From Halomicronema hongdechloris C2206 (GTDB lineage: Bacteria; Cyanobacteriota; Cyanobacteriia; Phormidesmidales; Phormidesmidaceae): DNA of 32,000 bases. Each line of letters opens with the position of its first letter. Positions within the stretch are counted from its first letter, which is position 1. The notes under the pieces were generated by a model. It ran no database searches. It saw only the letters and a list, made by a program, of their open reading frames with translations, and had not been told where the DNA came from. The stretch lies in assembly GCF_002075285.3 (NCBI RefSeq), contig NZ_CP021983.2, positions 2,640,001 to 2,672,000 of the forward strand, read 5' to 3'. Below, piece after piece: positions 14,302 through 32,000 of this stretch. A program made the translations under genes and the position numbers.

Positions 14302-14925
14302 ATGTCCCAGCGTCCTCATTCCCTAGCTGATTTCGACCCTGCTATTGGTCTCGGGCCTCCTGCCCAAGTCGATCTGGGCCGCTACGATCAGTCCTGGTTT
14401 GAGCTGGGACGTCCCCGCTGGGTGATGTTGCTGTGGTGGCTACTGCAGGCCATCGTCTTTCCCCTAACCCCTCACCATGGCCATGGTCCTCGCCGGGCCC
14501 TGCTGCGACTATTCGGGGCTCGCATTGGCCGAGGCGTGATGATTCGCCCCACCGCCCGCTTCACCTACCCCTGGAAAGTGGCCATCGGTGATTACAGTTG
14601 GATCGGCGACGATGTAGTGTTCTATAGCCTCGACCACATTCAGGTGGGCTGCCACTGTGTGATCTCCCAGGAAAGCTACCTCTGCACCGGCAGCCATGAC
14701 TTTCAAGACCCGACGTTTAATCTCCGGACAGAGCCAATTTTCATCGAAAACGGAGTATGGGTGGCGGCTGACTGCTTCATCGGCCCCGGCGTATGTATTG
14801 GCGCCAACACAGTGGTGGGAGTACGCAGCAGTGTATTCAACGATCTACCAGCGGGTCAGATTTGTTGGGGAACTCCTTGCCGACCTCACCGTCCGAGAGA
14901 GGTAAGGGCGTCTACCAGAGAATAA
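14302..14925 (+). CDS. hexapeptide-repeat O-acetyltransferase, WcaF-like (colanic-acid-type polysaccharide acetyltransferase)
   Basis: LLRLFGARIGRGVMIRPTARFTYPWKVAIGDYSWIGDDVVFYSLDHIQVGCHCVISQESYLCTGSHDF...VWVAADCFIGPGVCIGANTVVGVRSSV is a left-handed beta-helix pattern. I chose ATG 14302 (MSQRPHS) because the upstream 29 codons of the ORF-track model lie in the repeat element. Confidence 0.8.
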   Translation: MSQRPHSLADFDPAIGLGPPAQVDLGRYDQSWFELGRPRWVMLLWWLLQAIVFPLTPHHGHGPRRALLRLFGARIGRGVMIRPTARFTYPWKVAIGDYSWIGDDVVFYSLDHIQVGCHCVISQESYLCTGSHDFQDPTFNLRTEPIFIENGVWVAADCFIGPGVCIGANTVVGVRSSVFNDLPAGQICWGTPCRPHRPREVRASTRE

Positions 14926-15430
14926 TCCCAGTCGAGTTCTCTCAGCATCGATGCTCATTGACTAGACCATTAGCCCCCACAGTCATGGTGCTATCTCCAG
15001 CACAGCTGCAGGCAATTGTAATCTTGATACCCGTTGTCAATGAGATCCAGACACCCTAGATATCAGACCTTGCAACCACATCTCACTCAACCGGAATTAC
15101 TCCCAGCAAACTATACGGCTAGGCCTACGAAGCCAACATCAAGCTAGGCAACAGCCCGCGACCTCAGGATTAAGTCTAAACGCGCCTTACGTCACCAATG
15201 GCCGGGTGATCTGTACAAAGCTCCACACTAGCGGATGTTGCGATTAATTTTTGATTGAATCCGCAACCATGACTGGGGTCATATCCCTGACCCTATCTAT
15301 GGGTATACACGTACGCAGTGGTCGTATGTATTGATTGTGGGCGTATAGATCGCCTGCCGCCCTGAATGGCGTGACACTGGTGCGGTGCTCTACCGGTTCT
15401 CGGCAACTCTATCATCAGGGCCTTTACAAC

Positions 15431-16255
15431 ATGACTGTAATCCAGCTCCTCAATATCACCCTGCACAATCTCACTCAGACCGATTTGCTGCACAGGCTAC
15501 ACCCCTATCGCGGCGGTGGCGTGGTGGTTACTCCCAATGTGGACCACTTGATAAAGCTGCAGTCGGATGAAGAGTTTTACCGGCTGTATCAAGCCGCCGA
15601 CTATCGCGTCTGCGACAGTCAGATCCTGTTCTATTTTTCCCGCATTCTAGGTACCCCGATTCGAGAGAAGATCACCGGCTCCGATTTACTGCCGGCCTTC
15701 TATCGCCATTATGGCCAAGACCCAGAAGTGCGGCTATTTCTGCTGGGGGGCTTGCCCGGCACTCCAGAGCAAGCCCAGGCCAAGATCAATGCCAAGGTGG
15801 GGCGCGCCATGGTGGTGGGGGCCTATTCCCCGCCCTTTGGCTTTGAGAAGGACCCGGCTGAATGTCGGGCCATCCTCGAGCGCATCCGACAGTCGGGGGC
15901 GACGGTGGTGGCAGTAGGCCTGGGGGCGCCCAAACAAGAAAAGTGGATCTTTCGGTACAAGGATCTACTGCCTCAGGTCAGCACCTTTCTGGCCGTCGGG
16001 GCCGCCATCGGCTTCGAGGCCGGCACCGTGGAGCGGGCTCCCCGTTGGATGAGTGATGTGGGTCTGGAGTGGTTCTATCGCTTGCTGTCAGAACCCCAAC
16101 GGCTATGGCGGCGCTATGTGCTCCAGGCCCTGCCCTTTCTGGGCCTGATTCTGGCTCAGAGATGTCGTCTCTATCGCAATCCGTTTACCGCTGGTGCCCA
16201 GCCGGCCTCGACGCCGCAGACCAAGCTGGTGCTCAGAGCCCTAAAGATCCTGTAA
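15431..16255 (+). CDS. WecB/TagA/CpsF family glycosyltransferase
   Basis: VVTPNVDHLIKL...DSQILFYFSRILGTPIREKITGSDL...RLFLLGG.PG...GLGAPKQEKWI...AVGAAIGFEAGTVERAPRWMSDVGLEWFYRLLSEPQRLWRRY is diagnostic of family GT26. Internal ATG at 15431 preferred. Confidence 0.85.
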   Translation: MTVIQLLNITLHNLTQTDLLHRLHPYRGGGVVVTPNVDHLIKLQSDEEFYRLYQAADYRVCDSQILFYFSRILGTPIREKITGSDLLPAFYRHYGQDPEVRLFLLGGLPGTPEQAQAKINAKVGRAMVVGAYSPPFGFEKDPAECRAILERIRQSGATVVAVGLGAPKQEKWIFRYKDLLPQVSTFLAVGAAIGFEAGTVERAPRWMSDVGLEWFYRLLSEPQRLWRRYVLQALPFLGLILAQRCRLYRNPFTAGAQPASTPQTKLVLRALKIL

Positions 16256-16369
16256 AGACCTGGTCAAGCGGGAGGATGGCACCGCCAGGGTCAGTAGATT
16301 TTAAGGAAAAGGCCACGGCATCCAACCCGATCACGGTCCCTCACAGGCAGAGGCTTCACCCCTAGAACT

Positions 16370-18613
16370 ATGGACGGCAAAACCTACCAGGATTACGTCG
16401 AAGAGATTGACCTGCAGCGCTACTGGCTAGTGCTGAAACGGCGCTGGTTGCCAGCTAGTCTGGTCTTTGCCGCCTGCGTAGTCGCCGCCGCCTTGGTGGG
16501 CCTGAGTCAGAAAGATACTTACCAGGCTAGTGGAAAACTGCTGTTTCAGGTGGATCGCTCCACCTCGCTGACCGGGGTGGGTGATGAAATTGGCGATCTG
16601 GAGGCAGTCAATCCCGTCAACAGTGACCCCCTCTCTACCCAAGCGGCCATCTTGAGTTCCTTACCAGTGCTCCAGGAGGCCGTCAATGCCCTAGACCTCC
16701 AGGATGCCAAGGGCAACTCGATCCCACCCGATGTGCTCAGACGGGGGCTGACCATTGCGCCCTTAGAGGGCACCGATGTCTTGAGGGTCGCCTATCAATC
16801 GCCCAACGGTGAACTATCGGCGGCGGTGGTGAATCAGGTGATGACCTCTTACATCGAGCGCAACATCACCATGAATCGCTCCGAGGCGACGGCCGCCCGG
16901 CAGTTTGTGCAAGAGCAGTTGCCTAAAGCCGAGGCCGAGGTGGAGCAGGCTGCCGAGGCGCTGCGCCAGTTCAAGGATCAAAACCAGATCATTGCCTTGG
17001 AAAGCGAAGCCAATGCCGCCGTCAGCATGATTAATAATTTAGAGACCCAGATTGGTCAGGCCCAAGCGCAATTGGCCAGTGCCATCACCCGCACAGGCGA
17101 ACTGCGGCGGCAGCTGGGCATTCCCCTGGCTCAGGCCCGTCAAGTCGATTCGTTGAGTCAGTCGCCGGGGGTGCAGCGGATCTTAGAAGACTTACAGGCG
17201 GTGCAGACCGAACTGGCCAGCCAGCGCAGCCGCTACACCGCTAGCCACCCTCTGATTGCCAACCTAGAGCGGGAACAGGCCTCCTTACAAACCCTATTGA
17301 ACCGGCGGGTGGGAGAAGTATTGGGCACCCAGGCCAATATTTCCCCTGGCGATCTGCAAATGAGTGAGTTGAGCCGTCAGCTCACCAGCCAGTTGACCGA
17401 GGCCGAGGTGAATCGCCTCAGTTTGGCCAGCCAAGTGCAGGCGTTGCTGGACTCGCGCCAGGCCTATATCGAATGGTCTCAGGCCTTTCCGGCCCTGGAG
17501 AAACGGCAATTGGAGCTAGAACAACGGCTATTGGCGGCCAAGACCAACTATGAAACCCTGCTGGTGCGACTGCAGGAAGCCCAACTGGCGGAAAACCAGA
17601 CCGTAGGCAGCGCCCAGATTCTAGAACCAGCGGCACCGCCTCGCTTTCCGGTGGGGACCAGCACCAAGAAATATATCGCCGCCGGTGGGGCCGTAGGATT
17701 GCTGCTGGGGGTGGCGATGGCCTTCTTCCTAGATTTAATTGATAAGTCCATTAAGACGGTCAAGGATGGCGAAGCCCTGCTGGGCTACACCCTGCTGGGG
17801 TTGATTCCAAAGTTTGGCCTACTTGGCAACGACGGTCCAGATCTGGAGTTACCTGCTGGTGAGGGCATTTCGCCCCGGGTCATCGCCTTCAGCCAGACCC
17901 AGCCCATGGTCACAGCAGCCTATCAGATGCTGCAGGCCAACCTGAAATTCATTAGCTCTGATACCCCTCGCCGGGCACTCACCCTCACCAGTTCTGTGCC
18001 TCAGGAGGGCAAATCAGAAGTGGCCGCCAACCTGGCCGCCACCATCGCCCAGACCGGCAAACAGGTGCTGCTGGTGGATGCCGACATGCGATCGCCCTGG
18101 CAACATCATCTCTGGAATGTCGTCAATCAGATTGGCCTCAGCCACGTGTTGGTAGGCGAAGGGCATTTAAACCAGGCCCTGCGCCCGGTGGCCAATAACC
18201 TCACCCTGCTCAGTGCCGGAGTGACGCCACCAAACCCCCTGGCTCTGATCGACTCGGAACGGATGGCGGCTTTGGTCAGGACCTTGGCCAAGCGCTATGA
18301 CTATGTCCTGTTCGATACGCCGCCGTTGATTGGAGCCGCCGATGCGGCAGTGTTAGGACGGGCCACAGATGGGGTATTGCTGGTGCTGCGGCCACGGCTA
18401 GTGGATTCCGCCAGCGCCCAAGCGGCCAAGTCCCTGCTGCAGCGCTCGGGGGCCGAGATCTTAGGGATGGTGGCCAATGGCGTTGATATTCGCCATGAGC
18501 ACGATGACTATGTCTCCCACGTCAAGGCGGGAGCCTATCCCTACGGTCAGCGGCGGGACGCATCTACGAGTAACCTATCGCCGATATCTACTGAGCTCTC
18601 TGACAAGACCTAA
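16370..18613 (+). CDS. wzc: polysaccharide co-polymerase / BY-kinase (Wzc-like: Wzz domain, coiled coil, C-terminal P-loop kinase)
   Basis: 747 aa. N-terminal TM plus the Wzz region, a long coiled-coil segment, and a PPRFPVGTSTKKY proline motif before TM2. Walker A SVPQEGKSEVAANLA, A-prime VLLVDADMR, Walker B YVLFDTPP. The C-terminal tail has three Tyr (DDYVSHVKAGAYPYG). Confidence 0.9.
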   Translation: MDGKTYQDYVEEIDLQRYWLVLKRRWLPASLVFAACVVAAALVGLSQKDTYQASGKLLFQVDRSTSLTGVGDEIGDLEAVNPVNSDPLSTQAAILSSLPVLQEAVNALDLQDAKGNSIPPDVLRRGLTIAPLEGTDVLRVAYQSPNGELSAAVVNQVMTSYIERNITMNRSEATAARQFVQEQLPKAEAEVEQAAEALRQFKDQNQIIALESEANAAVSMINNLETQIGQAQAQLASAITRTGELRRQLGIPLAQARQVDSLSQSPGVQRILEDLQAVQTELASQRSRYTASHPLIANLEREQASLQTLLNRRVGEVLGTQANISPGDLQMSELSRQLTSQLTEAEVNRLSLASQVQALLDSRQAYIEWSQAFPALEKRQLELEQRLLAAKTNYETLLVRLQEAQLAENQTVGSAQILEPAAPPRFPVGTSTKKYIAAGGAVGLLLGVAMAFFLDLIDKSIKTVKDGEALLGYTLLGLIPKFGLLGNDGPDLELPAGEGISPRVIAFSQTQPMVTAAYQMLQANLKFISSDTPRRALTLTSSVPQEGKSEVAANLAATIAQTGKQVLLVDADMRSPWQHHLWNVVNQIGLSHVLVGEGHLNQALRPVANNLTLLSAGVTPPNPLALIDSERMAALVRTLAKRYDYVLFDTPPLIGAADAAVLGRATDGVLLVLRPRLVDSASAQAAKSLLQRSGAEILGMVANGVDIRHEHDDYVSHVKAGAYPYGQRRDASTSNLSPISTELSDKT

Positions 18614-18616
18614 GCC

Positions 18617-19669
18617 ATGATCACGCGTTGGATTCCCCTGATGGCCGCGTCGGTAGGACTGTGGCTAACCTTTCCGATGGCCCCAACCCGGGCAGTGACC
18701 GAGGCGGTGGGTGCTCTCCCAGCCACGGCCCGAGCCGACTATGTCTTAGGTCCGGGAGACCAGGTGGCCATTTCCATCATTGGCTACGAGGAATTTACCG
18801 GCTCTCGGGTGATCTTGCCCGATGGCACCATCTCCATGCCATTAATCGGCTCGGTGGCGGCGGCAGGCCGCACTACGGAGGCATTGGCAGCGGAACTCAC
18901 GGCCCGGTTGGGGGTGTATTTGGTCAACCCGGTGGTGGATGTCAGCCTGACGGTGTTGCGGCCGGTGGTGGTCACAGTGGCAGGGGAGGTCTATCGCCCC
19001 GGCCCGGTGCAGTTAAGCAGCCTCACCCAGGCCGATACGCGGCTAGATACCAATTCTCGCATTACCTCGTCGACCAATACCCCGACCCTGGCCTCGGCCC
19101 TGACGGCGGCGGGAGGCGTGCAACGCACGGCAGATGTGCGCCAGGTGCGGGTGCAACGCACGTTGCCTACGGGGCAGGTGACTAGCTATACGGTCAATCT
19201 CTGGGAGGCGATCGTATCGGGTACTCAGGCGGACAATCTGGTGTTGCGGGATGGGGATGCCGTCTATGTGCCAGCAGCCGAACCAGGAGATGTGGACCCG
19301 CGGTTGGTGGCCAGTTCTAGTGTGGCCCCGTCAACGGTGCGGGTGCGAGTGATTGGGGAGGTGAACCGGCCGGGCCAGGTGGAGGTGCCACCCAATAGTT
19401 CGGTGTCGGGGGCGGTGGCGGTGGCCGGTGGCCCCACCGATGATGCCCGCCTCAAGGAGGTGGTGCTGGTGCGGTTGAATGACCAGGGCCAGGTGGAGGA
19501 AACGGTGTTGGACCTGCGCAATATGGTGGATGCGGAGCAGGTGCAGGACGGGGACGTGGTGCTGGTGGCGAAGCACGGGTATCTAAATGTGCTGGATGGC
19601 ATTGGTCGGGTGATTCAGGGGGTATTTCCGCCCCTGAGGCTGCTGGATGTGTTGGGGACGTTTGATTAA
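18617..19669 (+). CDS. wza: polysaccharide export outer-membrane protein (Wza-like; Poly_export plus SLBB domains)
   Basis: Signal peptide MITRWIPLMAASVGLWLTFPMAP. YVLGPGDQVAISIIGYEEFTGSRVILPDGTISMPLIGSVAAAGRTTEALAAELTARL is the PES motif. Repeated GDVV/GDAVYVP SLBB-like segments. It starts 3 nt after the wzc stop. Confidence 0.85.
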   Translation: MITRWIPLMAASVGLWLTFPMAPTRAVTEAVGALPATARADYVLGPGDQVAISIIGYEEFTGSRVILPDGTISMPLIGSVAAAGRTTEALAAELTARLGVYLVNPVVDVSLTVLRPVVVTVAGEVYRPGPVQLSSLTQADTRLDTNSRITSSTNTPTLASALTAAGGVQRTADVRQVRVQRTLPTGQVTSYTVNLWEAIVSGTQADNLVLRDGDAVYVPAAEPGDVDPRLVASSSVAPSTVRVRVIGEVNRPGQVEVPPNSSVSGAVAVAGGPTDDARLKEVVLVRLNDQGQVEETVLDLRNMVDAEQVQDGDVVLVAKHGYLNVLDGIGRVIQGVFPPLRLLDVLGTFD

Positions 19670-19703
19670 TGCTGATTCAAGTGCAGTCTATTGAGGGCTA
19701 TCC

Positions 19704-20618
19704 ATGTCTAAATCTCCTGATTTCATCATTATTGGCGCCATGAAATGCGCGACGACAACGCTTCATGAGCAACTTGTGGCTCAGCCCGGCATTTTTATGA
19801 CCGAACCCAAGGAGCCATATTTCTTTAGCAATGATGAGATTTATAGCAAGGGCTGGCAATGGTACCAATCTCTGTATGCAGGGGCACAGCCAGAGGATAT
19901 TTGTGGGGAATCGAGCACCCACTATACGAAATTGCCAACCTATCCGAAAACCGTTAAACGCCTGATCCGACATGTGCCCAATGCTAGGTTCATCTATGTC
20001 ATGAGAGATCCGGTTGATCGACTGGTATCTCAGTATATTCATGAGTGGACTCAGCGACGAATATCTAGTGATATTAACCAGGCAATTTACGAATTTCCAC
20101 CGCTGATTGAATACAGTCGCTATAGCATGCAATTAGCACCTTACTTTAGGGCATTCGGGCCAGAGAGGGTGCTACCGGTATTTCTGGAGAAACTCAAGTC
20201 GAATCCCCAGGCGGAATTAGAAAGGGTATGCCGGTTCATTGGCTACGGGCAACATCCCGTCTGGAACAGCGACTTGGATCAACGGCATGTCTCGTCTGAT
20301 CGAACCCGTAAGAGTGCCTGGCGGGATGCCCTCGTGGAAGCCCCTGGCTTACGTCAGATCCGAAGAGCAGTTGTACCCAAGCCTGTGCGCAATTGGGTCA
20401 GAAGCTGGTGGCAAATGAAGCAGAGGCCTGAGTTAAGTGAAAAAGCCTTAGTTTATATCAAAACAGTGCTGGATAAGGACCTAGACATTTTAGGGTCTTG
20501 GCTAGGGCTAGATTTGAATTGCGATAACTTCAAGCCAACGGTGCTGAACAGTCCAGAGCATTGGATTAATATACAGCACTTGGCTGAGCAGTTCTCGAGC
20601 AAAGAAATGGTCAGCTAG
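19704..20618 (+). CDS. sulfotransferase family protein (carbohydrate-type)
   Basis: SPDFIIIGAMKCATTTLHEQL, EPKEPYFF, FIYVMRDPVDRLVSQY. These match the motifs at 5775 and 24397. GC is noticeably lower than in wza, immediately upstream. Confidence 0.85.
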   Translation: MSKSPDFIIIGAMKCATTTLHEQLVAQPGIFMTEPKEPYFFSNDEIYSKGWQWYQSLYAGAQPEDICGESSTHYTKLPTYPKTVKRLIRHVPNARFIYVMRDPVDRLVSQYIHEWTQRRISSDINQAIYEFPPLIEYSRYSMQLAPYFRAFGPERVLPVFLEKLKSNPQAELERVCRFIGYGQHPVWNSDLDQRHVSSDRTRKSAWRDALVEAPGLRQIRRAVVPKPVRNWVRSWWQMKQRPELSEKALVYIKTVLDKDLDILGSWLGLDLNCDNFKPTVLNSPEHWINIQHLAEQFSSKEMVS

Positions 20619-21863
20619 TTGGCCGATGGCAGCCCTAAATGGCCTACCGAATTTTGGTGGAATGTTGTGATCTATTTACAGGTATTGGATGCCTTGCTCA
20701 TCGGAATATTCCTGGTTCTCAGTATTCCGGTGCTGATGCTAGCAATTGAGGTGATAGCGGCTACATGCGTGCCTCAGTCATTATCTACTAGCCAAGCTCC
20801 TAATCATGCTTTATCGGTAGCCGTCTTGATTCCGGCCCATGATGAGGAAGCCTGTATCGAGACGACTATTCAGACAGTTCAACCCCAACTCGGTCAGAAA
20901 GATCAACTGGTGGTGGTTGCCGATAACTGTACGGATAAGACGGCTCAAATGGCTAGGGATTTGGGAACCGTTGTCATTGAGCGAGTAGATACGCTGAAAC
21001 GCGGCAAAGGCTATGCCTTCGAGTTTGGCATAGGATATTTATTGGATAATCCGCCTGATGTGGTTATTTGCATTGATGCGGATTGTCATATGAGTCCAGG
21101 CAGCATCGCAGGCCTAGTGGCTCAAGCCCATGGGACTCAAAGGCCGGCTCAGGCAATCTATCTGATGGAAACACCGTCGGCCCCCAACTTGAAAAGCGCG
21201 GTTTCGGCCTTTGCATTTAAGGTTAAAAACCTGGTCAGACCCTTGGGATTGTATGGCTTAGGGCAGCCATGTCTGTTGACTGGTACAGGCATGGCGTTTC
21301 CCTGGAAGGCTATCCGTAGCATTGATCTGGCCACCAACTCCATTGTGGAGGATATGAAGATTGGGATCGACCTTGCGATCGCACATCACCCACCCCTGCT
21401 GTGCCCCCAGGCTAAGGTGCTGGGACGCTTACCGAGCCAGCAGGAAGTAGCCAGCCAGCAACGAACCCGCTGGGAACACGGTCATTTACAGGTAATTGCC
21501 AGTTATCTTCCCGTATTGCTGAAAGCAGCCTTCACCCAGGGGCGGTTTGATCTACTCATACTTGCTGTGGAACTAGCCATACCTCCCTTGACGCTGTTGG
21601 CCCTCATGCTAGTAGCCCCATGGGGACTGGCCATGGGGCTAGCCTGGGTGCACCACACGATCTGGGCACTGGCCGTCGGCTCAGCTAACATCCTCGTTTT
21701 CACGGTTGCATTAACCGTTGCCTGGTTGAGATATGGACAGGAGGATCTAAACCTCTGGGACATGGTGAAACTACCGGTTTATTTGTTGTGGAAGCTCCCC
21801 ATTTATTTGCGGTTTCTGACCAGTCCAGAGCGCGAATGGAAACGCACCAGCAGAGGGAATTAA
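20619..21863 (+). CDS. membrane-embedded processive GT2 (cellulose-synthase-like, D,D,D,QxxRW class)
   Basis: N-terminal TM segment. VAVLIPAHDEE, VVVADNCTDKT, ICIDADC (DxD), SIVEDMKIG (ED), QQRTRWEHG (QxxRW), then several C-terminal TM helices. The start is uncertain: a TTG directly abuts the upstream stop. Confidence 0.8.
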   Translation: MADGSPKWPTEFWWNVVIYLQVLDALLIGIFLVLSIPVLMLAIEVIAATCVPQSLSTSQAPNHALSVAVLIPAHDEEACIETTIQTVQPQLGQKDQLVVVADNCTDKTAQMARDLGTVVIERVDTLKRGKGYAFEFGIGYLLDNPPDVVICIDADCHMSPGSIAGLVAQAHGTQRPAQAIYLMETPSAPNLKSAVSAFAFKVKNLVRPLGLYGLGQPCLLTGTGMAFPWKAIRSIDLATNSIVEDMKIGIDLAIAHHPPLLCPQAKVLGRLPSQQEVASQQRTRWEHGHLQVIASYLPVLLKAAFTQGRFDLLILAVELAIPPLTLLALMLVAPWGLAMGLAWVHHTIWALAVGSANILVFTVALTVAWLRYGQEDLNLWDMVKLPVYLLWKLPIYLRFLTSPEREWKRTSRGN

Positions 21864-23134
21864 TAGTTTGGCTTACTCAGCGTCAGTGATCGAGGGAGGC
21901 TATGCTTTGATAACTGTTTCTCTGGTGAGCGGCGCTGATATAAATTCGTGGAGATAACGGTAGCGCAATACAATACCCAGAAGATATTTAGCAGAAACGT
22001 CAGCAGACTCTCAGTCATGTTATAGAGCAACAATAGACTTAATAATCCCAGAGGCCAGAAATCCTCTGGCTTACTGCCCTTGTAGGCAGTTTTTAAGGCA
22101 TGCCAGTAGGTCTTAACCAGAGAAACCAGAAATAGAGATAACCCGACGAAACCCACGAATAGGGTCATGTCTAGAAAGCCATTATGGGAGTGAGGTGGCA
22201 AGTAGCCCCGCCCTAGTCTGAGACCAATTTCGACTCGTTCAGTAGCGTCTGGTGCCCAAAACCCCATCTGCCCATAGCCTAAAATAGGTTGCTCCATAAT
22301 CTTTTGGATGACGCCCCCCCAAATTAAGGTCCTACCCGATAAGGTTGGATCCCTGCCGAGACTAGTAATTAACGGTGCCCAGTTACTCGCAATGACAGTA
22401 ACTATAGAGCCCAAAGTAAGCACTGTCAGATCTAAGAGCAGTAGCGTTGGTTTGCCTTTCCAAATAAACTTTTTATAGAGGGATAAAGAGACGAGCGCAA
22501 CTATAAAAATAATTAACCCCGACTTAGAGGTCGATAGAATAATCATGGCAATAGACAGCAGTAGCCCGGCTCTAGCCAATAAACTCTCCTGGGGATTCTT
22601 ATTCTTGCTGAGCAAACAGAAAAAGGCCACTAGCGTCAGGGTCATATAGGCTGAGAAGGTATTCTTGTGGCCATAGATTCCCTTCCAAGATCCGGCATGA
22701 ACTCCCCCTAGCTTGATCCCGACTCCAGGCATGGCGATCACCGCAAATAGACTTAAAAGGGCACCGATTCCTAATACCACAACGATTAATCGCAACTGCT
22801 GCTTAATCGTGAATCGCGACCCGAAATAGATGCCAAAGGCTGACATGGGGATAAACTCACCCCTGAGATTGTCGAATGTTTGCGCTGGATAAGCAGCCCA
22901 AGCTAACGACGCAATCACCAAAAATATTAATAGAGCGAGTACCCTACTGCGTTTCAGGGCACAAAGAGTAAGATGCAGGCGTTTAGCCAGTAGCCCTAAG
23001 GTGATCATTAAGATCGAATACCTCAGCAGCGTCATGCCTATAGACGGCAAAAAAACTGACAGCCCGTTGGTGAAGAAGAGGAGACTGAATATAGAGAAGG
23101 CTCGTTCAAAGGAAGGGGAGATGCGCATAGACAC
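21860..23134 (-). CDS. wzy: O-antigen ligase/polymerase family membrane protein (Wzy-like)
   Basis: 424 aa and highly hydrophobic, with about 10-12 predicted TM segments. A periplasmic-loop region ...GRGYLPPHSHNGFLDMTLFVGFVGL is typical of the Wzy_C/O-antigen ligase domain. The stop overlaps the stop of the convergent GT2 (TTAA at 21860-21863). Confidence 0.75.
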   Translation of the reverse strand: MSMRISPSFERAFSIFSLLFFTNGLSVFLPSIGMTLLRYSILMITLGLLAKRLHLTLCALKRSRVLALLIFLVIASLAWAAYPAQTFDNLRGEFIPMSAFGIYFGSRFTIKQQLRLIVVVLGIGALLSLFAVIAMPGVGIKLGGVHAGSWKGIYGHKNTFSAYMTLTLVAFFCLLSKNKNPQESLLARAGLLLSIAMIILSTSKSGLIIFIVALVSLSLYKKFIWKGKPTLLLLDLTVLTLGSIVTVIASNWAPLITSLGRDPTLSGRTLIWGGVIQKIMEQPILGYGQMGFWAPDATERVEIGLRLGRGYLPPHSHNGFLDMTLFVGFVGLSLFLVSLVKTYWHALKTAYKGSKPEDFWPLGLLSLLLLYNMTESLLTFLLNIFWVLYCATVISTNLYQRRSPEKQLSKHSLPRSLTLSKPNY

Positions 23135-24320: not shown

Positions 24321-24396
24321 AATCAATGACTAGTAATCACGACAAACACGTGGGTGAGATGACTCAGCTGCTTAGAATTCCCTGAGGAACTAGCGC

Positions 24397-25266
24397 TTAA
24401 AGGTGCTGGATTGGGGAATAGGCAGGCTGAGAGAACGATGACCAGTAATCTAGAGGCTTACCGCAATAGTTCAAGAGAGCCTGGGTATCGTCAGCCAATT
24501 GCTCTAAGACCCATTGCTGGGTTTCTGGTTGCCATTGGGGACGTTCACTGACTGGCTTAAAGAACAGGCGTTTCTTCAATGGATCACGCAAATCCCTGGG
24601 CAAGACCTGCACACTGGCGCGATATAACGGATTAGCCCGCAGCTTGGATAAAACCGGAGACGGCATGGTCTTGGTGGCAGAGGGGTTCATCTGCAGTGTG
24701 GTGTCAATGGATATCTCCGGATCGACTCCGAGAAATTCAAAACAGGTGCGCAATACCCTATGCGGATTTGTCTTAAAGTCTTCAAAGAAGATGATTAGAA
24801 TTTGCTCATTGGAAAAGTAAGGGCGATAGGCATTGATTTGCTGCCAGTAGTTAGAGGCATCGATTAGCCAATCGCGATTCAGTTTAATAGCCGTATTAAA
24901 GTCATGGTGCACGACCTCGCCGCCATGGGAGCGAATTTCTAGCCAGTAAGATTCGATGCGGGTGAATGGATCTCGGACACAGTAGATTAGCTTTAAGTCA
25001 GTGGAATAGGCCCGAATGCGTTCAACTGCCTGGGGATAAATCTCCTGCATCGTGTAAATATTGCTGTTTTCTCCCTTGATCTGACCCAGCTGGGCCGCTG
25101 TAAACAGAGAACGGTACCAATCTATGCCCTTCGCATAAAGATCATCTCGGGCAAAGAAACTCACTTCATGGGGAGGAGTGAAAATATCAGGATGTTGATT
25201 TAAGAGAGCCGTAATTGTGGTGGTGGCGCACTTGGAGGCACCGATAAATAGAAAGTCAGGTGTCAT
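24397..25266 (-). CDS. sulfotransferase family protein (carbohydrate-type)
   Basis: MTPDFLFIGASKCATTTITALL, PPHEVSFF, LIYCVRDPFTRIESYW. ATG at 25266 preferred by analogy with MSKSPDFIIIG at 19704. Alternative starts are 25284 (ATG) and 25314 (TTG). Confidence 0.85.
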   Translation of the reverse strand: MTPDFLFIGASKCATTTITALLNQHPDIFTPPHEVSFFARDDLYAKGIDWYRSLFTAAQLGQIKGENSNIYTMQEIYPQAVERIRAYSTDLKLIYCVRDPFTRIESYWLEIRSHGGEVVHHDFNTAIKLNRDWLIDASNYWQQINAYRPYFSNEQILIIFFEDFKTNPHRVLRTCFEFLGVDPEISIDTTLQMNPSATKTMPSPVLSKLRANPLYRASVQVLPRDLRDPLKKRLFFKPVSERPQWQPETQQWVLEQLADDTQALLNYCGKPLDYWSSFSQPAYSPIQHL

Positions 25267-26055
25267 AGTAGTCAGAACGCCCATAGACTGGTTGTAGCTA
25301 CGAATAGCTCCCAAGGAAATTGGAGATGAGGCAGATGATGGAGTAATGGGATAAATAGTCTATTGGTATTATTCATCTTGATATAAATGCATCAGGATGG
25401 ATGGTCAGCTAACTTGCCAAAATAATTTTGACGATCTTTATTCCATTGCGGGCGGCACTTTATAGCAGCTTTATATCTAGACAGACAGTGTTAAAGACAC
25501 GGATATTTGAGCCTAAGTTCCGAGAGGGACCAGCGATAATCCTGTAATATACGGGCTGCTGATGGCTGCGCTGCAGATGTGCTAGAGAAAACGTCTAGTC
25601 AGTATTCTTATGAATATGGGAGAGGAGTGTCGGAACCTTAACCTGAATGACCGCGTCGGAGCGATATGAAATCCCACTAGGCAGGGGTGTGACCATCTTG
25701 AAGTTGTATACCAGCACACTTTTGACTGAATTTCGTTGAGGGCTTAGAGCCTCATAGATAAGCAGCAAGAGCGATTTTACCCTGACAGTTGTAAATTCTC
25801 CTGATCGATGCTGAAAACACTGAATGAACGGAAAGAACTATCCTTAAATTCTTAGGATGACCGTCGATGGATCTCATCGCCAGCATCAAACTCACTACAT
25901 TTATCCCAGCATTGAGATTGCCATTGCGGCACTTAGCCAGTAGGACTACGACTGTTTCTGATCATGCCCTTGCGAAACCATAAGAGACTGATGACGTCTT
26001 GGGGGTAAAGCAGCGGTTGCAGTCGGGTCCGCGTCTACCTTGCTCATCATTCGGG

Positions 26056-27270
26056 ATGGACACCATGACAATCGCCTACTTAGTCAATCAATATCCCAAA
26101 GTCAGCCATAGCTTTATCCGCCGGGAAATCGAGGCGGTAGCCGCCAGTGGTTTAACCGTGCACCGCTATGCCATTCGCTCTTTAGCAACGGAATTGGTAG
26201 ATGAGGCCGACCTGCGAGAGTTAGTCCAGACCCAATTTGTCTTAGATGTCGGCCCCTTGGGGCTATTGCTAACCTGGCTGTGGATAGGGCTGACTCGGCC
26301 CTGGCGCTTTGGTGTCGCCTTGAGGTTGGCCTTGGCCATAGGCCACTGTTCCGAGCGGGGCCGGTTGATTCATTTGATTTACCTGGCCGAAGCCTGTGTG
26401 TTGCTGCAGTGGTGTCGCCGGGATGGGGTGGCCCATATCCATGCCCACTTCGGCACTAACTCCACCACGGTGGCGATGCTGGTGCAGGAGTTGGGGGGGC
26501 CGTCCTATAGCTTTACGGTTCATGGCCCCGAAGAGTTTGATAAGGTGCAGGCCATTGCCCTGCCCCAGAAGATTGAACGGGCTGCCTTTGTGGTGGCCGT
26601 CAGTGACTTTGGCCGCAGCCAGCTCTGTCGCTGGTGTAGCCATGACCTGTGGGACAAGATTCAGGTGGTGCGCTGCGGGGTGGATGAGCTGTTCTTGCAA
26701 CAGGCCCCGTTGCCGCTCCCCCTGGCTCCTAGCTTTGTCTGTGTGGGGCGCCTCTGTGAGCAGAAGGGGCATTTGCTGCTGATAGAGGCAGCAGCGAAGC
26801 TAGCTAGCCAGGGCAGACATTTTCGCTTGGTGTTGGTGGGGGATGGCCCCCTGAGAGCCCCCATCGAAGCCATGATTGAGCGCTATGGCCTGGCGGAGCA
26901 GATCACGATCACCGGCTGGGCCAGTGGTGATGAGGTGCTGCGGCATCTGTTAGAGGCTCAGGTGATGGTGCTGCCCAGTTTTGCCGAGGGCTTGCCGGTG
27001 TCGCTGATGGAGGCCCTGGCTTTGGGGCGACCAGTGATTAGCACCTATGTAGCCGGGATTCCGGAGTTGGTGGAACCGGATATCTGTGGCTGGTTGGCGC
27101 CAGCGGGAGCCCTGGAACCCTTGGTGGCGGCGATGAAGTCGGCCTTGGCGACACCCGTAGCAGAACTAGAGGAAATGGGGCGACGCGGTGCTGAACGCGT
27201 GGCGCAGCGCCATAGTAGTGCCACTGAAGGGGCGAAGTTAGCGGCTCTGTTTCACAGGGAGCTGAAGTAA
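26056..27270 (+). CDS. glycosyltransferase family 4 (WcaL/AmsK-like)
   Basis: MDTMTIAYLVNQYPKVSHSFIRREI..., FVCVGRLCEQKGHLLLIEA...LVLVGDGPLR...VLPSFAEGLPVSLMEALALGRPVISTYVAGIPELV. High GC, like the native part of the window. Confidence 0.85.
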   Translation: MDTMTIAYLVNQYPKVSHSFIRREIEAVAASGLTVHRYAIRSLATELVDEADLRELVQTQFVLDVGPLGLLLTWLWIGLTRPWRFGVALRLALAIGHCSERGRLIHLIYLAEACVLLQWCRRDGVAHIHAHFGTNSTTVAMLVQELGGPSYSFTVHGPEEFDKVQAIALPQKIERAAFVVAVSDFGRSQLCRWCSHDLWDKIQVVRCGVDELFLQQAPLPLPLAPSFVCVGRLCEQKGHLLLIEAAAKLASQGRHFRLVLVGDGPLRAPIEAMIERYGLAEQITITGWASGDEVLRHLLEAQVMVLPSFAEGLPVSLMEALALGRPVISTYVAGIPELVEPDICGWLAPAGALEPLVAAMKSALATPVAELEEMGRRGAERVAQRHSSATEGAKLAALFHRELK

Positions 27271-27339
27271 TCCAAAATTCATGAGTCTTAGAGAAAGCCC
27301 TAATGAATATATCAGTAGATCACTACTAAGAAACATTCA

Positions 27340-28218
27340 ATGAAAAAGTTACGCATAAAACCCTCTAAAAGACAAACTGCAAGAGCCTTTTACTCTTCTC
27401 AGAGCCAGCTCCGACATCCAACGCAAATGTTGCAGTTACTGCGCCGGGATATTCTGGCCTCCCGAGAGTTAGCTTGGCAACTGCTAATTCGAGATATTAA
27501 AGCACAGTACCGACAGTCTTTGCTAGGCTTTGCTTGGGCTTTTATTCCACCTGTAATCACTGCAGTTGGCTTCATGTTTGCCAAGGGTAATGGCATTGTT
27601 AATATTGGAGAAACTGATATACCTTACCCTGCTTATGTGATGTTTAGCACAAGTCTATGGCAAACATTTTCAGAAGCGATTAGCTTACCTGTTCAACAGG
27701 TAACCAATGCCAAGATGATGCTGGCAAAGATCAATTTTCCTCGGGAAGCATTAGTACTTTCTGCCGTAGGGCAAGTATTCTTTAACTTTTTAATTAAACT
27801 GATTTTTATTATCGGACTATTTATCTGGTTCCGTATGCCTGTGACATGGAGTATTGTATTGGCTCCTGTGGCTTTACTTCACCTAATTATGCTAGGTACG
27901 ACTATCGGCACTGTCCTAGCCCCGATTGGTGCTCTCTATAAAGATGTCACAAAAGGGTTGACCTTCATTCTTAGTTTCTGGATGCTATTAACTCCAGTGG
28001 TATATCCTCCTCCTCAAGGAGGGAAACTTTCGCTGCTGATAAATCTCAATCCAGTTAGCCCATTACTGGTGACGACTCGGGAACTTTCTACAGTAGGAAT
28101 ATTGTCTAATCCTCAAGGTTTCTGGATGGCTAGTGGCGTCGCTTTCTTAGGTCTTCTCCTGGCATGGATGTTTTATCGCTTAGCCATGCCCTACGTTATT
28201 GAAAGGATGAGTTCTTAA
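27340..28218 (+). CDS. wzm: ABC-2 type polysaccharide export permease (Wzm/KpsM/TagG-like)
   Basis: ELAWQLLIRDIKAQYRQSLLGFAWAFIPPV is the ABC-2 signature, followed by six hydrophobic segments. Low GC. The stop overlaps the next start (TAATG). Confidence 0.85.
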   Translation: MKKLRIKPSKRQTARAFYSSQSQLRHPTQMLQLLRRDILASRELAWQLLIRDIKAQYRQSLLGFAWAFIPPVITAVGFMFAKGNGIVNIGETDIPYPAYVMFSTSLWQTFSEAISLPVQQVTNAKMMLAKINFPREALVLSAVGQVFFNFLIKLIFIIGLFIWFRMPVTWSIVLAPVALLHLIMLGTTIGTVLAPIGALYKDVTKGLTFILSFWMLLTPVVYPPPQGGKLSLLINLNPVSPLLVTTRELSTVGILSNPQGFWMASGVAFLGLLLAWMFYRLAMPYVIERMSS

Positions 28219-29540
28219 TGATGTCTGATTTATCCCTCTACTCAGCCAACAACCTCAAGGAGACGGATTTAAATGGACACGTTACAGCCAGTGATGATGT
28301 AGTGCTTTCTGTAAATAATGTTTCTAAGAAATTCTGCAGAGATCTCAAGCTCTCTCTGATGTATGGAATGCAAGATATTGTAGGGGAGATGGTTGGACTA
28401 CGCAAACAGAGTGAGCAGTTACGCAAGAAAGAATTTTGGGCATTAAAGGATATTAGTTTCCAACTGCGTCGAGGAGAGGCATTAGGGCTGGTTGGTAAAA
28501 ACGGCAGTGGCAAGTCTACCCTACTGAGGATTATTGCTGGACTGATTAAGCCTGATACAGGCAATGTAGAGATTAAAGGTCGTGTGGCTCCGCTTATTGC
28601 TCTAGGAGCAGGATTTAATGCAGTGTTGACTGGCAGAGAAAACATCTATGCCAATATGTCCATTCTGGGTCTGTCGAAAGAGGAAATTGATGAACGATTC
28701 GATGAGGTCGTAGAATTCGCAGAAATTGGAGAGGCAATTGATGCGCCTGTTCAAACCTACAGTTCTGGAATGCAGGCAAGATTAGGATTTTCGTGTGCGA
28801 TTCATACTAAGCCGGACATTCTTTTGATAGATGAAGTTCTCGCAGTTGGAGACATCAGATTCAGGTCGAAGTGTCATAAAAAGCTTCGAGAACTACGCCA
28901 TAATGGAACTTCTTTTATTCTTGTTAGTCATATTACTCAGTTGATATTAAACACTTGTGAACTCTCAATTTTTCTAAAGTATGGCAAGCTAATTAAACAG
29001 GGAAATTCTCAAGATGTTATGCAAATTTATGAACAAGATCTCTTCGAAATAAATAGTCAAGAAACCACAAAGAAAATTTTCAAGTTTGATTCTATGAAAA
29101 AACAGTTAATAGAAAACTCTGGAATCAAGATTAATGAAATTGCATTTAAAGATGAAAATGGGAATGAGATTTCTGAAATATTAACCGGAAACTTCTTAAA
29201 GATAGAAACACTAATTACTTCGGATAAAACATTTGAAGATGTAAACCTATTTATCAAAATCCAAGAGATAGGCGGGGAAGGAGAGCCAACATTGTTGCTA
29301 AACAGCTTTAATGATGGGAATTCTTTTCAGATTGAACCAGGATCTCACTGTATAACCATCGAGTTGCCTTATTTAGGGTTAAAGCCTGGAATATACAATT
29401 TTACTCTCTTGATAAAAGAGTCAGGACTATATATTGTTGACCTTGTTGAATCAATACAGATTATAGTTAAGGCAAATATTATCATGACGGATTGTCTTTT
29501 CTATCAGCCTAGGAAGTGGAAGAGTACACGAGTCGATTAG
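28218..29540 (+). CDS. wzt: polysaccharide ABC exporter ATPase with C-terminal carbohydrate-binding extension (Wzt/TagH-like)
   Basis: Walker A GKNGSGKST, signature YSSGMQARL, Walker B ILLIDEVLAVGD, H-loop SH. A further about 170 aa C-terminal domain (INEIAFKDENGNEISEIL...GIYNFTLLIKE...) resembles the Wzt_C beta-sandwich. Confidence 0.85.
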   Translation: MMSDLSLYSANNLKETDLNGHVTASDDVVLSVNNVSKKFCRDLKLSLMYGMQDIVGEMVGLRKQSEQLRKKEFWALKDISFQLRRGEALGLVGKNGSGKSTLLRIIAGLIKPDTGNVEIKGRVAPLIALGAGFNAVLTGRENIYANMSILGLSKEEIDERFDEVVEFAEIGEAIDAPVQTYSSGMQARLGFSCAIHTKPDILLIDEVLAVGDIRFRSKCHKKLRELRHNGTSFILVSHITQLILNTCELSIFLKYGKLIKQGNSQDVMQIYEQDLFEINSQETTKKIFKFDSMKKQLIENSGIKINEIAFKDENGNEISEILTGNFLKIETLITSDKTFEDVNLFIKIQEIGGEGEPTLLLNSFNDGNSFQIEPGSHCITIELPYLGLKPGIYNFTLLIKESGLYIVDLVESIQIIVKANIIMTDCLFYQPRKWKSTRVD

Positions 29541-29581
29541 AATAAATCGAAACAAATTTCTTTCTACCTGTAGTTTTTTTG

Positions 29582-30400
29582 ATGTCTAAAATGAGAAAGC
29601 ATATTAATCCTAAAATGAAAGACAATTCAAAGCAGAAAGATGAAAAATCAGGATTCTTCAGAGAAGACGACATATTTCTAGTTTCATACCCTAAGAGTGG
29701 TAACACCTGGGTTAGATTTTTAATTGCCAACCTAGTTCAGCCTAATAAGGAAGTAACATTCCTGAATATAGATGAATGCGTGCCAGACATTCATAAAAAT
29801 TCAATTGAAGAAATCAGCGTTAATGTTATTGAGAGGCCAAGAATTATCAAAAGCCATAATCTATATAATCCGACCTATAAAAGGGTTATTTACATAGTTA
29901 GAGATCCAAGAAGTGTTTCAGTATCTTTATATCACCACTTAATAAAATTTTTCAAAATTCCTGATCAATATCCATTCGAAGAATTTGTAGAAAATTTTAT
30001 TAAAGGAAATTATATGAGCTATTTTGGCTCTTGGGATAGTCATGTTCTTGGATGGATGAGCGGAACAAAGAATAATAATACTGATTTCATATGCTTAAAG
30101 TATGAAGATCTCAAAGATGAAACAGAAAAAGAGTTAACTAAAGTAGCTGACTTTTTAGGACTCAAGATTAACCAAGAACTATGTCAGAGAACTATTACTG
30201 CTAGTTCCTTTAATAAGATGAGACAATTAGAGTCTATGGATTGGGAGAAATCTAAGGCATTAAGCAATGGTAATCCTCATAAGCGATTTGTAAGAAGTGG
30301 GCAAGTAGATGAATGGAAATCGTATTTTAATCAAGAATCAGAGAGAAAATTACTGTCAAAATTTAGACCTGCAATGGAAGCACTTGGCTATACAGATTAG
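29582..30400 (+). CDS. sulfotransferase, PF00685-like (cytosolic-SULT-type motifs)
   Basis: FLVSYPKSGNTWVRFL (5-prime PSB), IIKSH, IYIVRDPRSVSVSLYHH (3-prime PB), YEDLKDETEKELTKVADFLGL, RSGQVDEWKSYF. Very low GC. Confidence 0.85.
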   Translation: MSKMRKHINPKMKDNSKQKDEKSGFFREDDIFLVSYPKSGNTWVRFLIANLVQPNKEVTFLNIDECVPDIHKNSIEEISVNVIERPRIIKSHNLYNPTYKRVIYIVRDPRSVSVSLYHHLIKFFKIPDQYPFEEFVENFIKGNYMSYFGSWDSHVLGWMSGTKNNNTDFICLKYEDLKDETEKELTKVADFLGLKINQELCQRTITASSFNKMRQLESMDWEKSKALSNGNPHKRFVRSGQVDEWKSYFNQESERKLLSKFRPAMEALGYTD

Positions 30401-30684
30401 TCTCTAATAAACTTTTGAAAAGTTCATTAGATAAATAAAAAATAAGCTAAACCATGAGACTAAAAAAATAGATGAGATCTAGCTATAGGGACAGAAGAAC
30501 AGTTGGTTTGTTGTAAAAATGTATTACCTTTAAATACCTATTCAGATGCAAAAGTCAAATCTAATTAGTCACCTCAATGGATGAAATGTGCACAATAAAT
30601 AAATGATATCTGAGGCAAAAAATTTGGAATTATATTTTTTACTACTTTATAATTCCATATAAAAAACAAGAGAAAATTAAAATC

Positions 30685-31512
30685 ATGATCAATATAACGT
30701 CTTTTTTTAGAAGCAGAAAAGAGTTTAATCTATTATTCTGCATTAACTCTGGAAGATCTGGTTCAAACTACCTTTCAAGTCTCTTAGGAACAACAAAAGA
30801 AGTATTTAGTCAGCATGAGGCTGAGCCTCCTATGATTGGTGGATATCTTGAAATGGTAAATAATTATCCCTTTTCTGAATCTTATCAATCTAGAAGAGTA
30901 AAAGTCGATGCTATAAAGCAAGCTATTAAAAGCATGCCAAAAAGTAAGAAGATTTACTGTGAAACAAATCACATGTTTATTAAAACATTCTTTGATGTCG
31001 TAATGGATGAATTTTCTGAGAAAGTGGAAATTATTATTCTAAGAAGAAACTTGGTGAGAGTTCTGAAGAGTTTCATAGAACTTGGTTATTTCTCGGAGCG
31101 CAATAAAGTTTGGTCTGAATGGATGTCTAGCCCCAACTCTATAACGGCTGTACTTCCCTGTATTGGTTTAGATAGTGAACTAGATCAATATGATCTATGC
31201 ATTGCATATCTTTTAGATATAGAAGCAAGAGCAGAAAAGTTTCAGAAGGATTATCCTTCAGCAAGGACATATGAGATCAAACTTGAGGATTTAAACGATT
31301 TTTCAAATATAAATAGAATGTTTAAGGCCATGAAAATAACACCTACACAAGAAACTTATAAAATATATAATAAAAAAATTAATAATAGAGAAATTAGAAA
31401 GAAAGAGATAGGAATTAGCTCTAGTTTAGACTATTGCGAGAAGAGATTGAAAGAATACATTGAAAAGGCTAATTACTTGGGGATAGAAATACCGCAAAAG
31501 GCGGCAACATAA
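30685..31512 (+). CDS. hypothetical protein, possible divergent sulfotransferase (P-loop-like GRSGS motif)
   Basis: 275 aa. LFCINSGRSGSNYLSSLLG resembles the PAPS-binding loop of Stf0/Sulfotransfer_3-type enzymes. IIILRRNLVRVLKSF resembles a 3-prime PB-like RR motif. There are no other recognisable motifs. The assignment is an inference. Confidence 0.4.
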   Translation: MINITSFFRSRKEFNLLFCINSGRSGSNYLSSLLGTTKEVFSQHEAEPPMIGGYLEMVNNYPFSESYQSRRVKVDAIKQAIKSMPKSKKIYCETNHMFIKTFFDVVMDEFSEKVEIIILRRNLVRVLKSFIELGYFSERNKVWSEWMSSPNSITAVLPCIGLDSELDQYDLCIAYLLDIEARAEKFQKDYPSARTYEIKLEDLNDFSNINRMFKAMKITPTQETYKIYNKKINNREIRKKEIGISSSLDYCEKRLKEYIEKANYLGIEIPQKAAT

Positions 31513-31580
31513 ATATCTCAGTCAAGCAAGGCTCTTAAACATTTTGCTTATTATCAGGCATTTAAATTGAAGGTAAAACC

Positions 31581-32000
31581 ATGGACCATAATCTCAATCC
31601 TAAAATTAGTGTAGTAATGATAGATGGTTCTTTTCGAGAAAACTTCTCTGCAATAAAGTACTTTGGAGATCAATCTCTTCCTTCTGAGAGTTATGAATTA
31701 ATTTGGGTAGAGTATTACAACAACGTAGATAAAAATTTGAGGAGAGAGATTGAAAAATTTCCAAATTTTAGAATTCTCACTTTAGGCAGAGAAGGAGAAT
31801 ACCATTCTTCCTATTGTTTTAATGCTGGGATTTCAGAAAGTATCGGTGATGTAATCGTAATTCCAGATGCAGACTTAGTTGTAGAAAACAATTTTCTAGA
31901 GGAAATTCTTTCCGAACATAGAAAAAATAACGAGCTGGCAATGTATATCTATAGGCTAAACGAGCCAAAAGAATTACATCAAGAGCCCATTACTCTAGAG
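31581..32000 (+). CDS. glycosyltransferase family 2-like, N-terminal 140 codons (continues beyond window)
   Basis: Absent from the ORF track because there is no stop within the window. ATG at 31581. MDHNLNPKISVVMIDGSFRENFSAIKYFGDQSLPSESYELIWVEYYNNVD...GDVIVIPDADLVVENNF shows a GT-A beginning with a DAD (DxD) motif. Confidence 0.6.
   Translation, partial: MDHNLNPKISVVMIDGSFRENFSAIKYFGDQSLPSESYELIWVEYYNNVDKNLRREIEKFPNFRILTLGREGEYHSSYCFNAGISESIGDVIVIPDADLVVENNFLEEILSEHRKNNELAMYIYRLNEPKELHQEPITLE

Follow-up and report, generated by a model that had tools for sequence, protein, structure and literature searches.

The window analysed here is a 32-kb stretch of the 5.58-Mb chromosome of Halomicronema hongdechloris C2206 (contig NZ_CP021983.2, positions 2,640,001 to 2,672,000; coordinates below count from its first nucleotide). 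ST3 and orf30685, two of the proteins treated below, are 100% identical to proteins of this strain. Between 14302 and its end at 32000 the window carries a polysaccharide locus that includes sulfotransferases of more than one class, as an initial annotation of the same DNA had proposed. Genes were identified from a map of open reading frames (ORFs) and from Pfam and NCBIfam scans of the window proteins, and each gene listed in that annotation proved to be a real ORF at the place given; apart from the candidate sulfotransferase orf30685, the genes match the models expected of them.

The leftmost gene encodes an O-acetyltransferase of the WcaF/HpsU type (14302-14925, +), which matches Hexapep and scores 328.7 bits with the NCBIfam HpsU equivalog (cut-off 305). 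It is followed by a GT26 (WecG/TagA/CpsF) glycosyltransferase (15335-16255, +; PF03808, 3e-56), the likely start of which is the ATG at about 15431, and by a co-polymerase and outer-membrane export pair as found in Wzx/Wzy-dependent pathways. The first of the pair, Wzc (16370-18613, +), is a PCP-2a co-polymerase and tyrosine autokinase with two hydrophobic segments, matched by TIGR01007 (157 bits, cut-off 108) and AAA_31, and by GNVR and Wzz with scores slightly below the Pfam cut-offs. The second is a short, 350-residue outer-membrane polysaccharide export (OPX) protein of the Wza type, similar to EpsY and pepcterm_export (18617-19669, +; Poly_export 3e-22, SLBB 9e-17). Next come ST1, a carbohydrate sulfotransferase dependent on 3'-phosphoadenosine 5'-phosphosulfate (PAPS) (19704-20618, +; PF13469 4e-21, PF00685 1e-16), and a membrane GT2 recognised by Pfam GT2 models and carrying the QxxRW motif as QQRTRW (20619-21863, +). 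On the opposite strand lie a Wzy_C-domain membrane protein with about nine hydrophobic segments (21860-23134, -; PF04932 1.3e-16), the glycosyltransferase GT4a (23139-24326, -; PF00534 2.8e-37) and the sulfotransferase ST2 (24397-25314, -; PF00685 6.5e-20). An intergenic region of 684 bp (25315-25998, GC 0.44), which contains no notable ORF, Rfam match or XssQ box, separates this ST2-GT4a-wzy unit from the divergent GT4b-wzm-wzt unit and presumably holds the promoters.

The divergent unit begins with the glycosyltransferase GT4b (25999-27270, +; PF13692, PF00534; likely start ATG 26053) and continues with the ABC-2 permease Wzm (27340-28218, +; PF01061, ABC2_membrane, 2e-13) and the ABC ATPase Wzt, which has a C-terminal extension (28218-29540, +; ABC_tran 1e-23). 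Downstream are ST3, a sulfotransferase of the cytosolic-like SULT type (29579-30400, +; PF00685 4e-45), orf30685 (30685-31512, +), whose predicted structure is described below, and the N-terminal part of a further GT2 (31590-32000, +; PF00535 27.3 bits, cut-off 23.3) that continues past the window end. A Wzx flippase, a priming phosphoglycosyl transferase and PAPS-synthesis genes had been reported as missing, correctly so for the whole 32 kb.

The sulfotransferase complement

The window holds five sulfotransferase-type genes in three classes: XssA-like and related to heparan sulfate 3-O-sulfotransferases (3-OSTs; ST0, ST1 and ST2), SULT-like (ST3), and the orf30685 family. ST0 (5775-6734, +; PF13469 7.5e-20, PF00685 1.2e-13) lies outside the coordinates covered by the initial annotation. 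It sits in a lower-GC islet amid housekeeping genes, with a XisI gene (4289-4624, -) and a PD-(D/E)XK ORF (4743-5462, -) as neighbours. None of the five proteins has hydrophobic segments, and PAPS-binding residues are retained in all. ST0, ST1, ST2 and ST3 each combine a Pfam domain above cut-off with the motifs that bind the 5'-phosphosulfate and the 3'-phosphate. The three that had been called unambiguous, ST1, ST2 and ST3, thus pass the PF00685/PF13469 cut-offs with their PAPS-binding motifs intact, and neither a failed sulfotransferase-model match nor a loss of these residues was found for any of them.

ST0, ST1 and ST2 share 31-35% identity (ST0 with ST1 35%, ST2 with ST1 32%) and carry the motifs G-A-x-K-x-x-T-T and R-D-P-x5-S, which read GAMKCATT and RDPVDRLVS in ST1 and GAMKAGTT and RDPIERTIS in ST0. 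ST1 is related to heparan sulfate 3-OSTs and to the bacterial protein 3rnl, and the PAPS loops and catalytic residues of these proteins are conserved in the three paralogues. In an alignment of ST2 with human 3-OST-5, the Lys, the Glu of "(Q/H)E(I/V)xFF", the Arg and the Ser are all kept; we take this Glu to be the catalytic base of the heparan sulfate 3-O-sulfotransferases. ST3 aligned instead to oestrogen sulfotransferase (1aqu, 1e-27), with which it shares the pattern PKSGxTW, KxH, RDPxxxxVS and RxGxxxxWK (PKSGNTW, KSH, RDPRSVSVS and RSGQVDEWK in ST3), so that the PAPS-binding loops and catalytic residues of cytosolic SULTs are conserved in it. Its nearest relatives, at 44-48% identity, lie within O-antigen-like glycan clusters, one of which also holds an adenosine 5'-phosphosulfate (APS) kinase and a Wzx; a metagenome scan with ST3 returned no relative. 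Overall identity of the window enzymes to 3-OSTs, SULTs and tyrosylprotein or CurM sulfotransferases is low (10-30%).

The remaining gene, orf30685, had been put forward as a candidate sulfotransferase, a proposal that fails on Pfam and stands on predicted structure. Its PF13469 score falls short of the cut-off (15.4 bits, E = 0.023, cut-off 27), 9 of 30 relatives gave only weak matches, and a sequence search of the PDB returned only noise. An AlphaFold model built on 30 homologues, however, reached a pLDDT of 90.6, and the 18 best Foldseek matches to it in the PDB were all PAPS-dependent sulfotransferases. They comprise tyrosylprotein sulfotransferases (TPST), the CurM sulfotransferase domain, retinol dehydratase, a Schistosoma sulfotransferase and 3-OSTs, with probabilities of about 1.0 and TM-scores of 0.45-0.53 for the tyrosylprotein, CurM and 3-OST matches. 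Invariant residues of the family are G23-R24-x-G26-S27, a P-loop-like GRSGS, and R121 with S129 eight positions on; we take these to be the 5'-phosphosulfate-binding and 3'-phosphate-binding motifs of TPST2, in which the spacing from R to S is presumably equal. An exhaustive profile search placed about 1,300 clusters at 50% identity in the family. Among its members the domain occurs fused to a GT2 domain (P0378), to GT2 together with an FkbM methyltransferase in a protein of 1,597 residues (P0423) and to a near-threshold NodZ-like domain (P0375), and the GT2/FkbM fusions speak for a function in modifying glycans. The GT2 domains of such fusions are not similar to the partial GT2 at 31590. On the predicted fold we accept orf30685 as a sulfotransferase-fold protein, and as modelled its family is an undescribed sulfotransferase-fold family that Pfam does not cover.

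Relation to the xss cluster and compositional strata

The xss cluster of Synechocystis sp. PCC 6803 (sll5042-sll5060 on plasmid pSYSM) has been shown genetically to make a sulfated exopolysaccharide (EPS), synechan, by a Wzx/Wzy-type route (PMC8205485). When the window proteins were compared with pSYSM by tblastn, four clear orthologues emerged: ST1 and XssA (sll5042; 64% identity over 286 residues), GT26 and XssN (slr5055; 59% over residues 33-273), GT4b and XssI (sll5050; 55%), and GT2 and XssO (slr5056; 46%). Both loci also possess a PCP-2a Wzc (25% identity to XssK) and a Wzy_C-type protein, and, as in xss, the Wzx/Wzy-type part of the window locus has two sulfotransferases, the second of which, ST2, is only distantly related to XssA (31%). 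The claim that the architecture differs from that of xss is thus not borne out. In Synechocystis, xssA and xssN are needed for EPS accumulation and bloom formation, and xssI and xssO mutants accumulate little EPS (PMC8205485).

The differences are nevertheless real. The window locus is chromosomal and not plasmid-borne, it contains its OPX gene where that of xss is encoded elsewhere, and it adds to the shared set an acetyltransferase, further sulfotransferase classes and an abutting ABC-transporter module. The window contains no orthologue of XssB, XssC, XssG, XssM, XssP or the flippase XssH (Wzx), so that from the eight-glycosyltransferase xss set, which includes the priming enzyme XssP, only XssI, XssN and XssO are represented. 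For the XssE-type sulfotransferase, only weak local matches were found among the window proteins, and tblastn gave nothing at the xssE position. Genes for the regulators XssS, XssR and XssQ are likewise absent from the window, and the XssQ box (AAGTTNNAC) has 0 matches in the 32 kb, against 2.1 expected by chance. By gene content, therefore, the locus is related to xss in part and does not copy it.

A second comparison comes from NCBIfam, in which GT26, GT2, GT4b and Wza gave full-length matches to EpsA, EpsU, EpsE and EpsY (2.7e-42, 1.4e-53, 3e-60 and 1e-25). We assume that these models describe the Wzx/Wzy-dependent EPS system of Myxococcus xanthus, which to our knowledge has no sulfotransferases. 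The glycosyltransferase trio and the short OPX are alike in the two systems, and as the window scores fall far below the equivalog cut-offs, the proteins are relatives and not orthologues.

The wider distribution of these genes was followed in individual loci and in a set of 80 loci anchored on XssI homologues. A close counterpart, a metagenomic locus of about 90% amino acid identity (L033; Wzc 93%, GT4a 91%), has the order Wzc-Wza-GT2'-ST1-Wzy-GT4a-ST2. Its GT2' (3800-4990) is only 46% identical to the window GT2, is host-like in GC and precedes ST1, whereas the window GT2 follows it, a divergence in sequence and placement which indicates that this GT2 was exchanged, by gene replacement or rearrangement, in an otherwise collinear cluster. 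A more distant relative (L111), with the order GT2-GT4b-Wzc-Wza-ST-Wzy-GT4a-GT2 and a GT4a 51% identical to that of the window, carries a sulfotransferase of a different subfamily in the slot between Wza and Wzy (6894-7922), a non-orthologous replacement. A second metagenome scan, with GT4b, found no close relative (best 66%). Many of the 80 XssI-anchored loci, in which genes were detected with a coverage filter, hold an XssO-like GT2, an XssN-like GT26 and Wzc/Wza, and none (0/80) holds a detectable ST1- or ST2-like gene at that filter. The idea that XssA and XssI form an obligate pair was rejected on this count. The pattern suggests that the glycosyltransferase trio with Wzc/Wza is a widespread backbone to which sulfotransferases are variable additions.

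A genome scan with ST1 also showed XssA-family sulfotransferases outside the cyanobacteria, at 42-59% identity, and XssI-like GT4 genes are frequently near them. The hosts include Planctomycetota/Phycisphaerae, Alphaproteobacteria (among them the isolates Lutimaribacter saemankumensis DSM 28010 and Parvularcula lutaonensis), Spirochaetales, a Saccharibacteria metagenome-assembled genome (MAG) and an Olavius symbiont. According to sources such as PMC8205485 and PMC13125312, it is solely or largely among the cyanobacteria that bacteria with sulfated polysaccharides are found. One Planctomycetota MAG has a complete-looking xss-like cluster (L015, 2825-13888) with Wzx, an unknown membrane ORF, GT4, GT2, an XssA-like sulfotransferase, GT2, an XssI-like GT4 and a single 745-residue fusion of an XssO-like GT2 with an XssN-like GT26; this fusion argues that XssN and XssO act together.

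Base composition divides the window into strata. GC content at third codon positions (GC3) is host-like, at 0.69-0.75, in the housekeeping genes (about 0.70), GT26, and wzc, wza and GT4b (0.69-0.74 in these three, with GT4b at 0.69); intermediate, at 0.52-0.60, in ST0 (0.58), ST1 (0.52), GT2, wzy, GT4a and ST2; and low, at 0.26-0.39, in wzm (0.39), wzt, ST3 (0.28), orf30685 and the last GT2 (0.26), with wzm/wzt at 0.35-0.39. All five sulfotransferase genes therefore belong to non-host strata. The break at 27.3 kb is sharp: compared with positions 1-19700, the stretch 27270-32000 has a GC of 31-43% in place of about 60% and a GC3 of 0.26-0.39 in place of about 0.70, so that the block from 27.3 kb onwards appears to be a recent foreign insertion. 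The most plausible reading of its genes, wzm, wzt, ST3, orf30685 and the last GT2, is that they form a second glycan module, ABC-transporter-dependent and gained by horizontal transfer.

Housekeeping genes (mtnA, crtL, obg, holA, cbiC and cobL) occupy the upstream half of the window. A composite element of ~240 nt occurs there in inverted copies at 568-807 and 14052-14269, which flank a 13-kb housekeeping block and share the motifs GGGGAGTGGGGGAGTAATGGGGTG and GAGTTTTGAGTTTTGA and an arm of 32 nt with 97% complementarity. A TTG at 14215 would lengthen the acetyltransferase ORF, and since the added stretch overlaps the right copy of this element, the ATG at 14302 is probably the true start. Two more GT2 genes at 988-2955 (-), one of them HpsE/EpsD-like below cut-offs, are possibly part of a different polysaccharide system. 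No RNA genes were detected in the window by Rfam and tRNA scans, and a promoter and terminator scan gave a number of sites not above chance.

Assembly routes and alternative readings

The locus very probably produces a sulfated glycan. As to how, we read it as two adjacent surface-glycan modules and not as three fused assembly routes, a reading to which we assign a probability of roughly 0.6 and which is preferred over a hybrid because Wzm/Wzt lie in a separate low-GC block. Gene identities, xss orthology, conserved motifs, the orf30685 fold and the compositional strata are what the analysis shows; the substrates, the sequence of steps, the split into two pathways and the sulfation of the product are inferred from them.

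The first, module A (about 14.3-27.3 kb), would be a Wzx/Wzy-type heteropolysaccharide cluster related to the synechan system. In it a repeat unit, started by a priming transferase encoded elsewhere, would be built on a lipid carrier at the cytoplasmic face by GT26/XssN, GT2/XssO, GT4a and GT4b/XssI, and decorated by the soluble PAPS-dependent enzymes ST1 and ST2 and by the WcaF/HpsU-type acetyltransferase. Transfer of the unit across the membrane would fall to a flippase, also encoded elsewhere, polymerisation to the Wzy_C protein, and export of the polymer to Wzc and Wza. The eight glycosyltransferases and two sulfotransferases of xss agree in number with the eight sugars and two sulfates found in each synechan repeat (PMC8205485). 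If the same counting holds for module A, which has four glycosyltransferases and an unseen primer besides its two sulfotransferases and its acetyltransferase, each repeat would contain about five sugars, at most two sulfates, and O-acetyl.

Module B (27.3 kb to beyond 32 kb) would be a horizontally acquired low-GC cassette whose glycan is made by the ABC-transporter route with Wzm, a Wzt that ends in a binding domain, and one GT2 or more, and is sulfated by the SULT-like ST3 and probably also by orf30685. Wzt aligns over residues 71-400 of 440, beyond its ATPase domain, to the full-length Wzt of the Aquifex aeolicus O-antigen exporter (8dku/7k2t, 1e-66), and its gene overlaps wzm, as in Wzm-Wzt exporters of this kind. 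Its score with Wzt_C is below the cut-off (23.2 bits, cut-off 30.4), although the PDB alignment reaches residue 400; the extension is a probable carbohydrate-binding domain. The E. coli O9a type is a Wzm-Wzt O-antigen exporter with such a C-terminal carbohydrate-binding domain. Unlike O-antigen exporters of this kind, the locus shows no recognisable WbdD-type capping enzyme within the window, and two sulfotransferase-type genes follow wzt.

An unlikely alternative is that the product is a sulfated lipopolysaccharide O-antigen or a capsule and not a released EPS, with the Wzy_C protein serving as a WaaL-type ligase and Wzm/Wzt as the main exporter. The Wzy_C protein has no NCBIfam match, and its PF04932 domain spans both Wzy and WaaL proteins, which Pereira et al. 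(2015) treated together; Wzt resembles O-antigen exporters with a binding domain, and ABC-type clusters have been suggested to make sulfated capsule (Maeda et al.). However, three independent loci, L033 and L111 among them, keep the Wzy_C gene in tight synteny with Wzc/Wza, an arrangement typical of polymerase-dependent EPS or capsule export, and in the window this gene lies in a different compositional stratum from wzm/wzt. We regard it as probably encoding a Wzy polymerase.

The initial annotation had favoured a single hybrid pathway, in which all genes from 14.3 to 32 kb serve one sulfated EPS and Wzy-dependent, synthase-type and ABC-transporter elements work together; this combination of three normally alternative routes did not hold up, and we think the hybrid improbable. 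Its synthase element came from the membrane GT2. The flanking hydrophobic segments are present in this protein, but QxxRW is a family feature conserved in XssO and in the GT2 of L033, the best NCBIfam family is EpsU and not PgaC (46.6 bits, cut-off 422), no solved synthase structure was matched, and the window contains no synthase partner genes (PilZ/BcsB, Alg44, PgaABD). There is precedent for the impression in Pereira et al. (2015), who grouped slr5056 (XssO) with Alg8/BcsA-like proteins; XssO nevertheless acts inside the genetically defined Wzx/Wzy-type xss system (PMC8205485). The synthase route was thus rejected, and the GT2, as an XssO orthologue, is better seen as a component of a Wzx/Wzy-type pathway.

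For the ABC element the hybrid can point to GT4b, wzm, wzt and ST3, which are co-directional with gaps of 69, -1 and 38 bp, to a metagenomic contig (L054, 1681-4415) that repeats the order XssI-like GT4, wzm, wzt seen at 25999-29540, and to pathway crosstalk as proposed by workers on cyanobacterial EPS (PMC6562117). Set against these are the sharp compositional break at 27.3 kb and the rarity of the arrangement: wzm stands beside a GT4b homologue in only 1 of the 80 XssI-anchored loci, L054 itself, where wzt is a partial match visible only without the coverage filter. In addition, L033 carries the core with no sign of an ABC module on its contig.

Quite improbable, in our view, is that some or all of the sulfotransferases, chiefly ST0, ST3 and orf30685, act on substrates other than polysaccharides, such as glycolipids, peptides or small metabolites. 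ST3 is most like cytosolic small-molecule SULTs, orf30685 has a fold like that of tyrosylprotein and CurM sulfotransferases and has cyanobacterial homologues that stand alone, and ST0 lies amid housekeeping genes. Yet ST1 is orthologous to XssA, which synechan accumulation needs, and ST1 and ST2 each share an operon-like unit with glycosyltransferases; moreover, the relatives of ST3 lie inside glycan clusters and those of orf30685 are fused to GT2 domains. As for the further idea that sulfation by ST3 or orf30685 at the non-reducing end marks the finished module B chain in place of methyl, phosphate or Kdo capping, with the Wzt C-terminal domain reading the sulfate as an export signal, we consider it very unlikely.

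Several points also weigh against the two-module reading itself. Module A is incomplete as seen, since Wzx, the priming transferase and PAPS synthesis are missing from the window, and regulation differs from that of xss, given that the XssQ box is absent. The Wzy_C protein could be a WaaL-type ligase. The two modules are possibly co-transcribed or functionally linked, as only 69 bp separate GT4b from the downstream, co-directional wzm and L054 repeats this order, and module B is cut by the window end. Finally, the orf30685 homologues on the P0122 contigs L035 and L036 and in Crocosphaera subtropica ATCC 51142 (L037) occur alone with no glycan genes nearby, so that genomic context does not back a glycan role for this family; the domain fusions do.

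Significance of the locus

Clusters of this class are less rare than the initial annotation had supposed, as the survey of Maeda et al. lists cyanobacterial genomes with up to 30 such genes (PMC8205485). A 2026 follow-up, which took a heterologous-expression approach, reports numerous predicted clusters, usually incomplete, that pair canonical export machinery with at least one sulfotransferase, and still names xss as the first elucidated cyanobacterial sulfated-polysaccharide system (Maeda et al. 2026, PMC13125312). The window locus belongs to the same class, and differs from the surveyed clusters in having both types of machinery side by side and five sulfotransferases of three classes within 32 kb. 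H. hongdechloris does not appear in the table of Maeda et al., and our literature search found no paper on this locus. In another Halomicronema strain, MgSO4 was reported to be the sole additive that stimulated biofilm formation, with induction of wza1 and wzt; this is compatible with a sulfated EPS in the genus and provides no evidence for the window locus. With the genome public and the cluster class already surveyed, the discovery of such a locus was to be expected, and it is a well-stocked but ordinary example of a cluster type catalogued in many cyanobacteria, not a new kind of pathway.

Its value lies elsewhere. Sulfated polysaccharides are valuable materials, and xss is the only genetically defined bacterial pathway for them. 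The locus, dense in sulfotransferases and mosaic in origin, offers a useful and compact list of parts for testing which enzymes set the sulfation pattern: an XssA orthologue, two XssA-like paralogues, a SULT-like enzyme and a member of the orf30685 family, beside export machinery. XssA, XssI, XssN and XssO emerge as a module that recurs widely, also outside the cyanobacteria, and the placement of every sulfotransferase gene of the window in laterally acquired strata suggests that sulfation is a swappable decoration.

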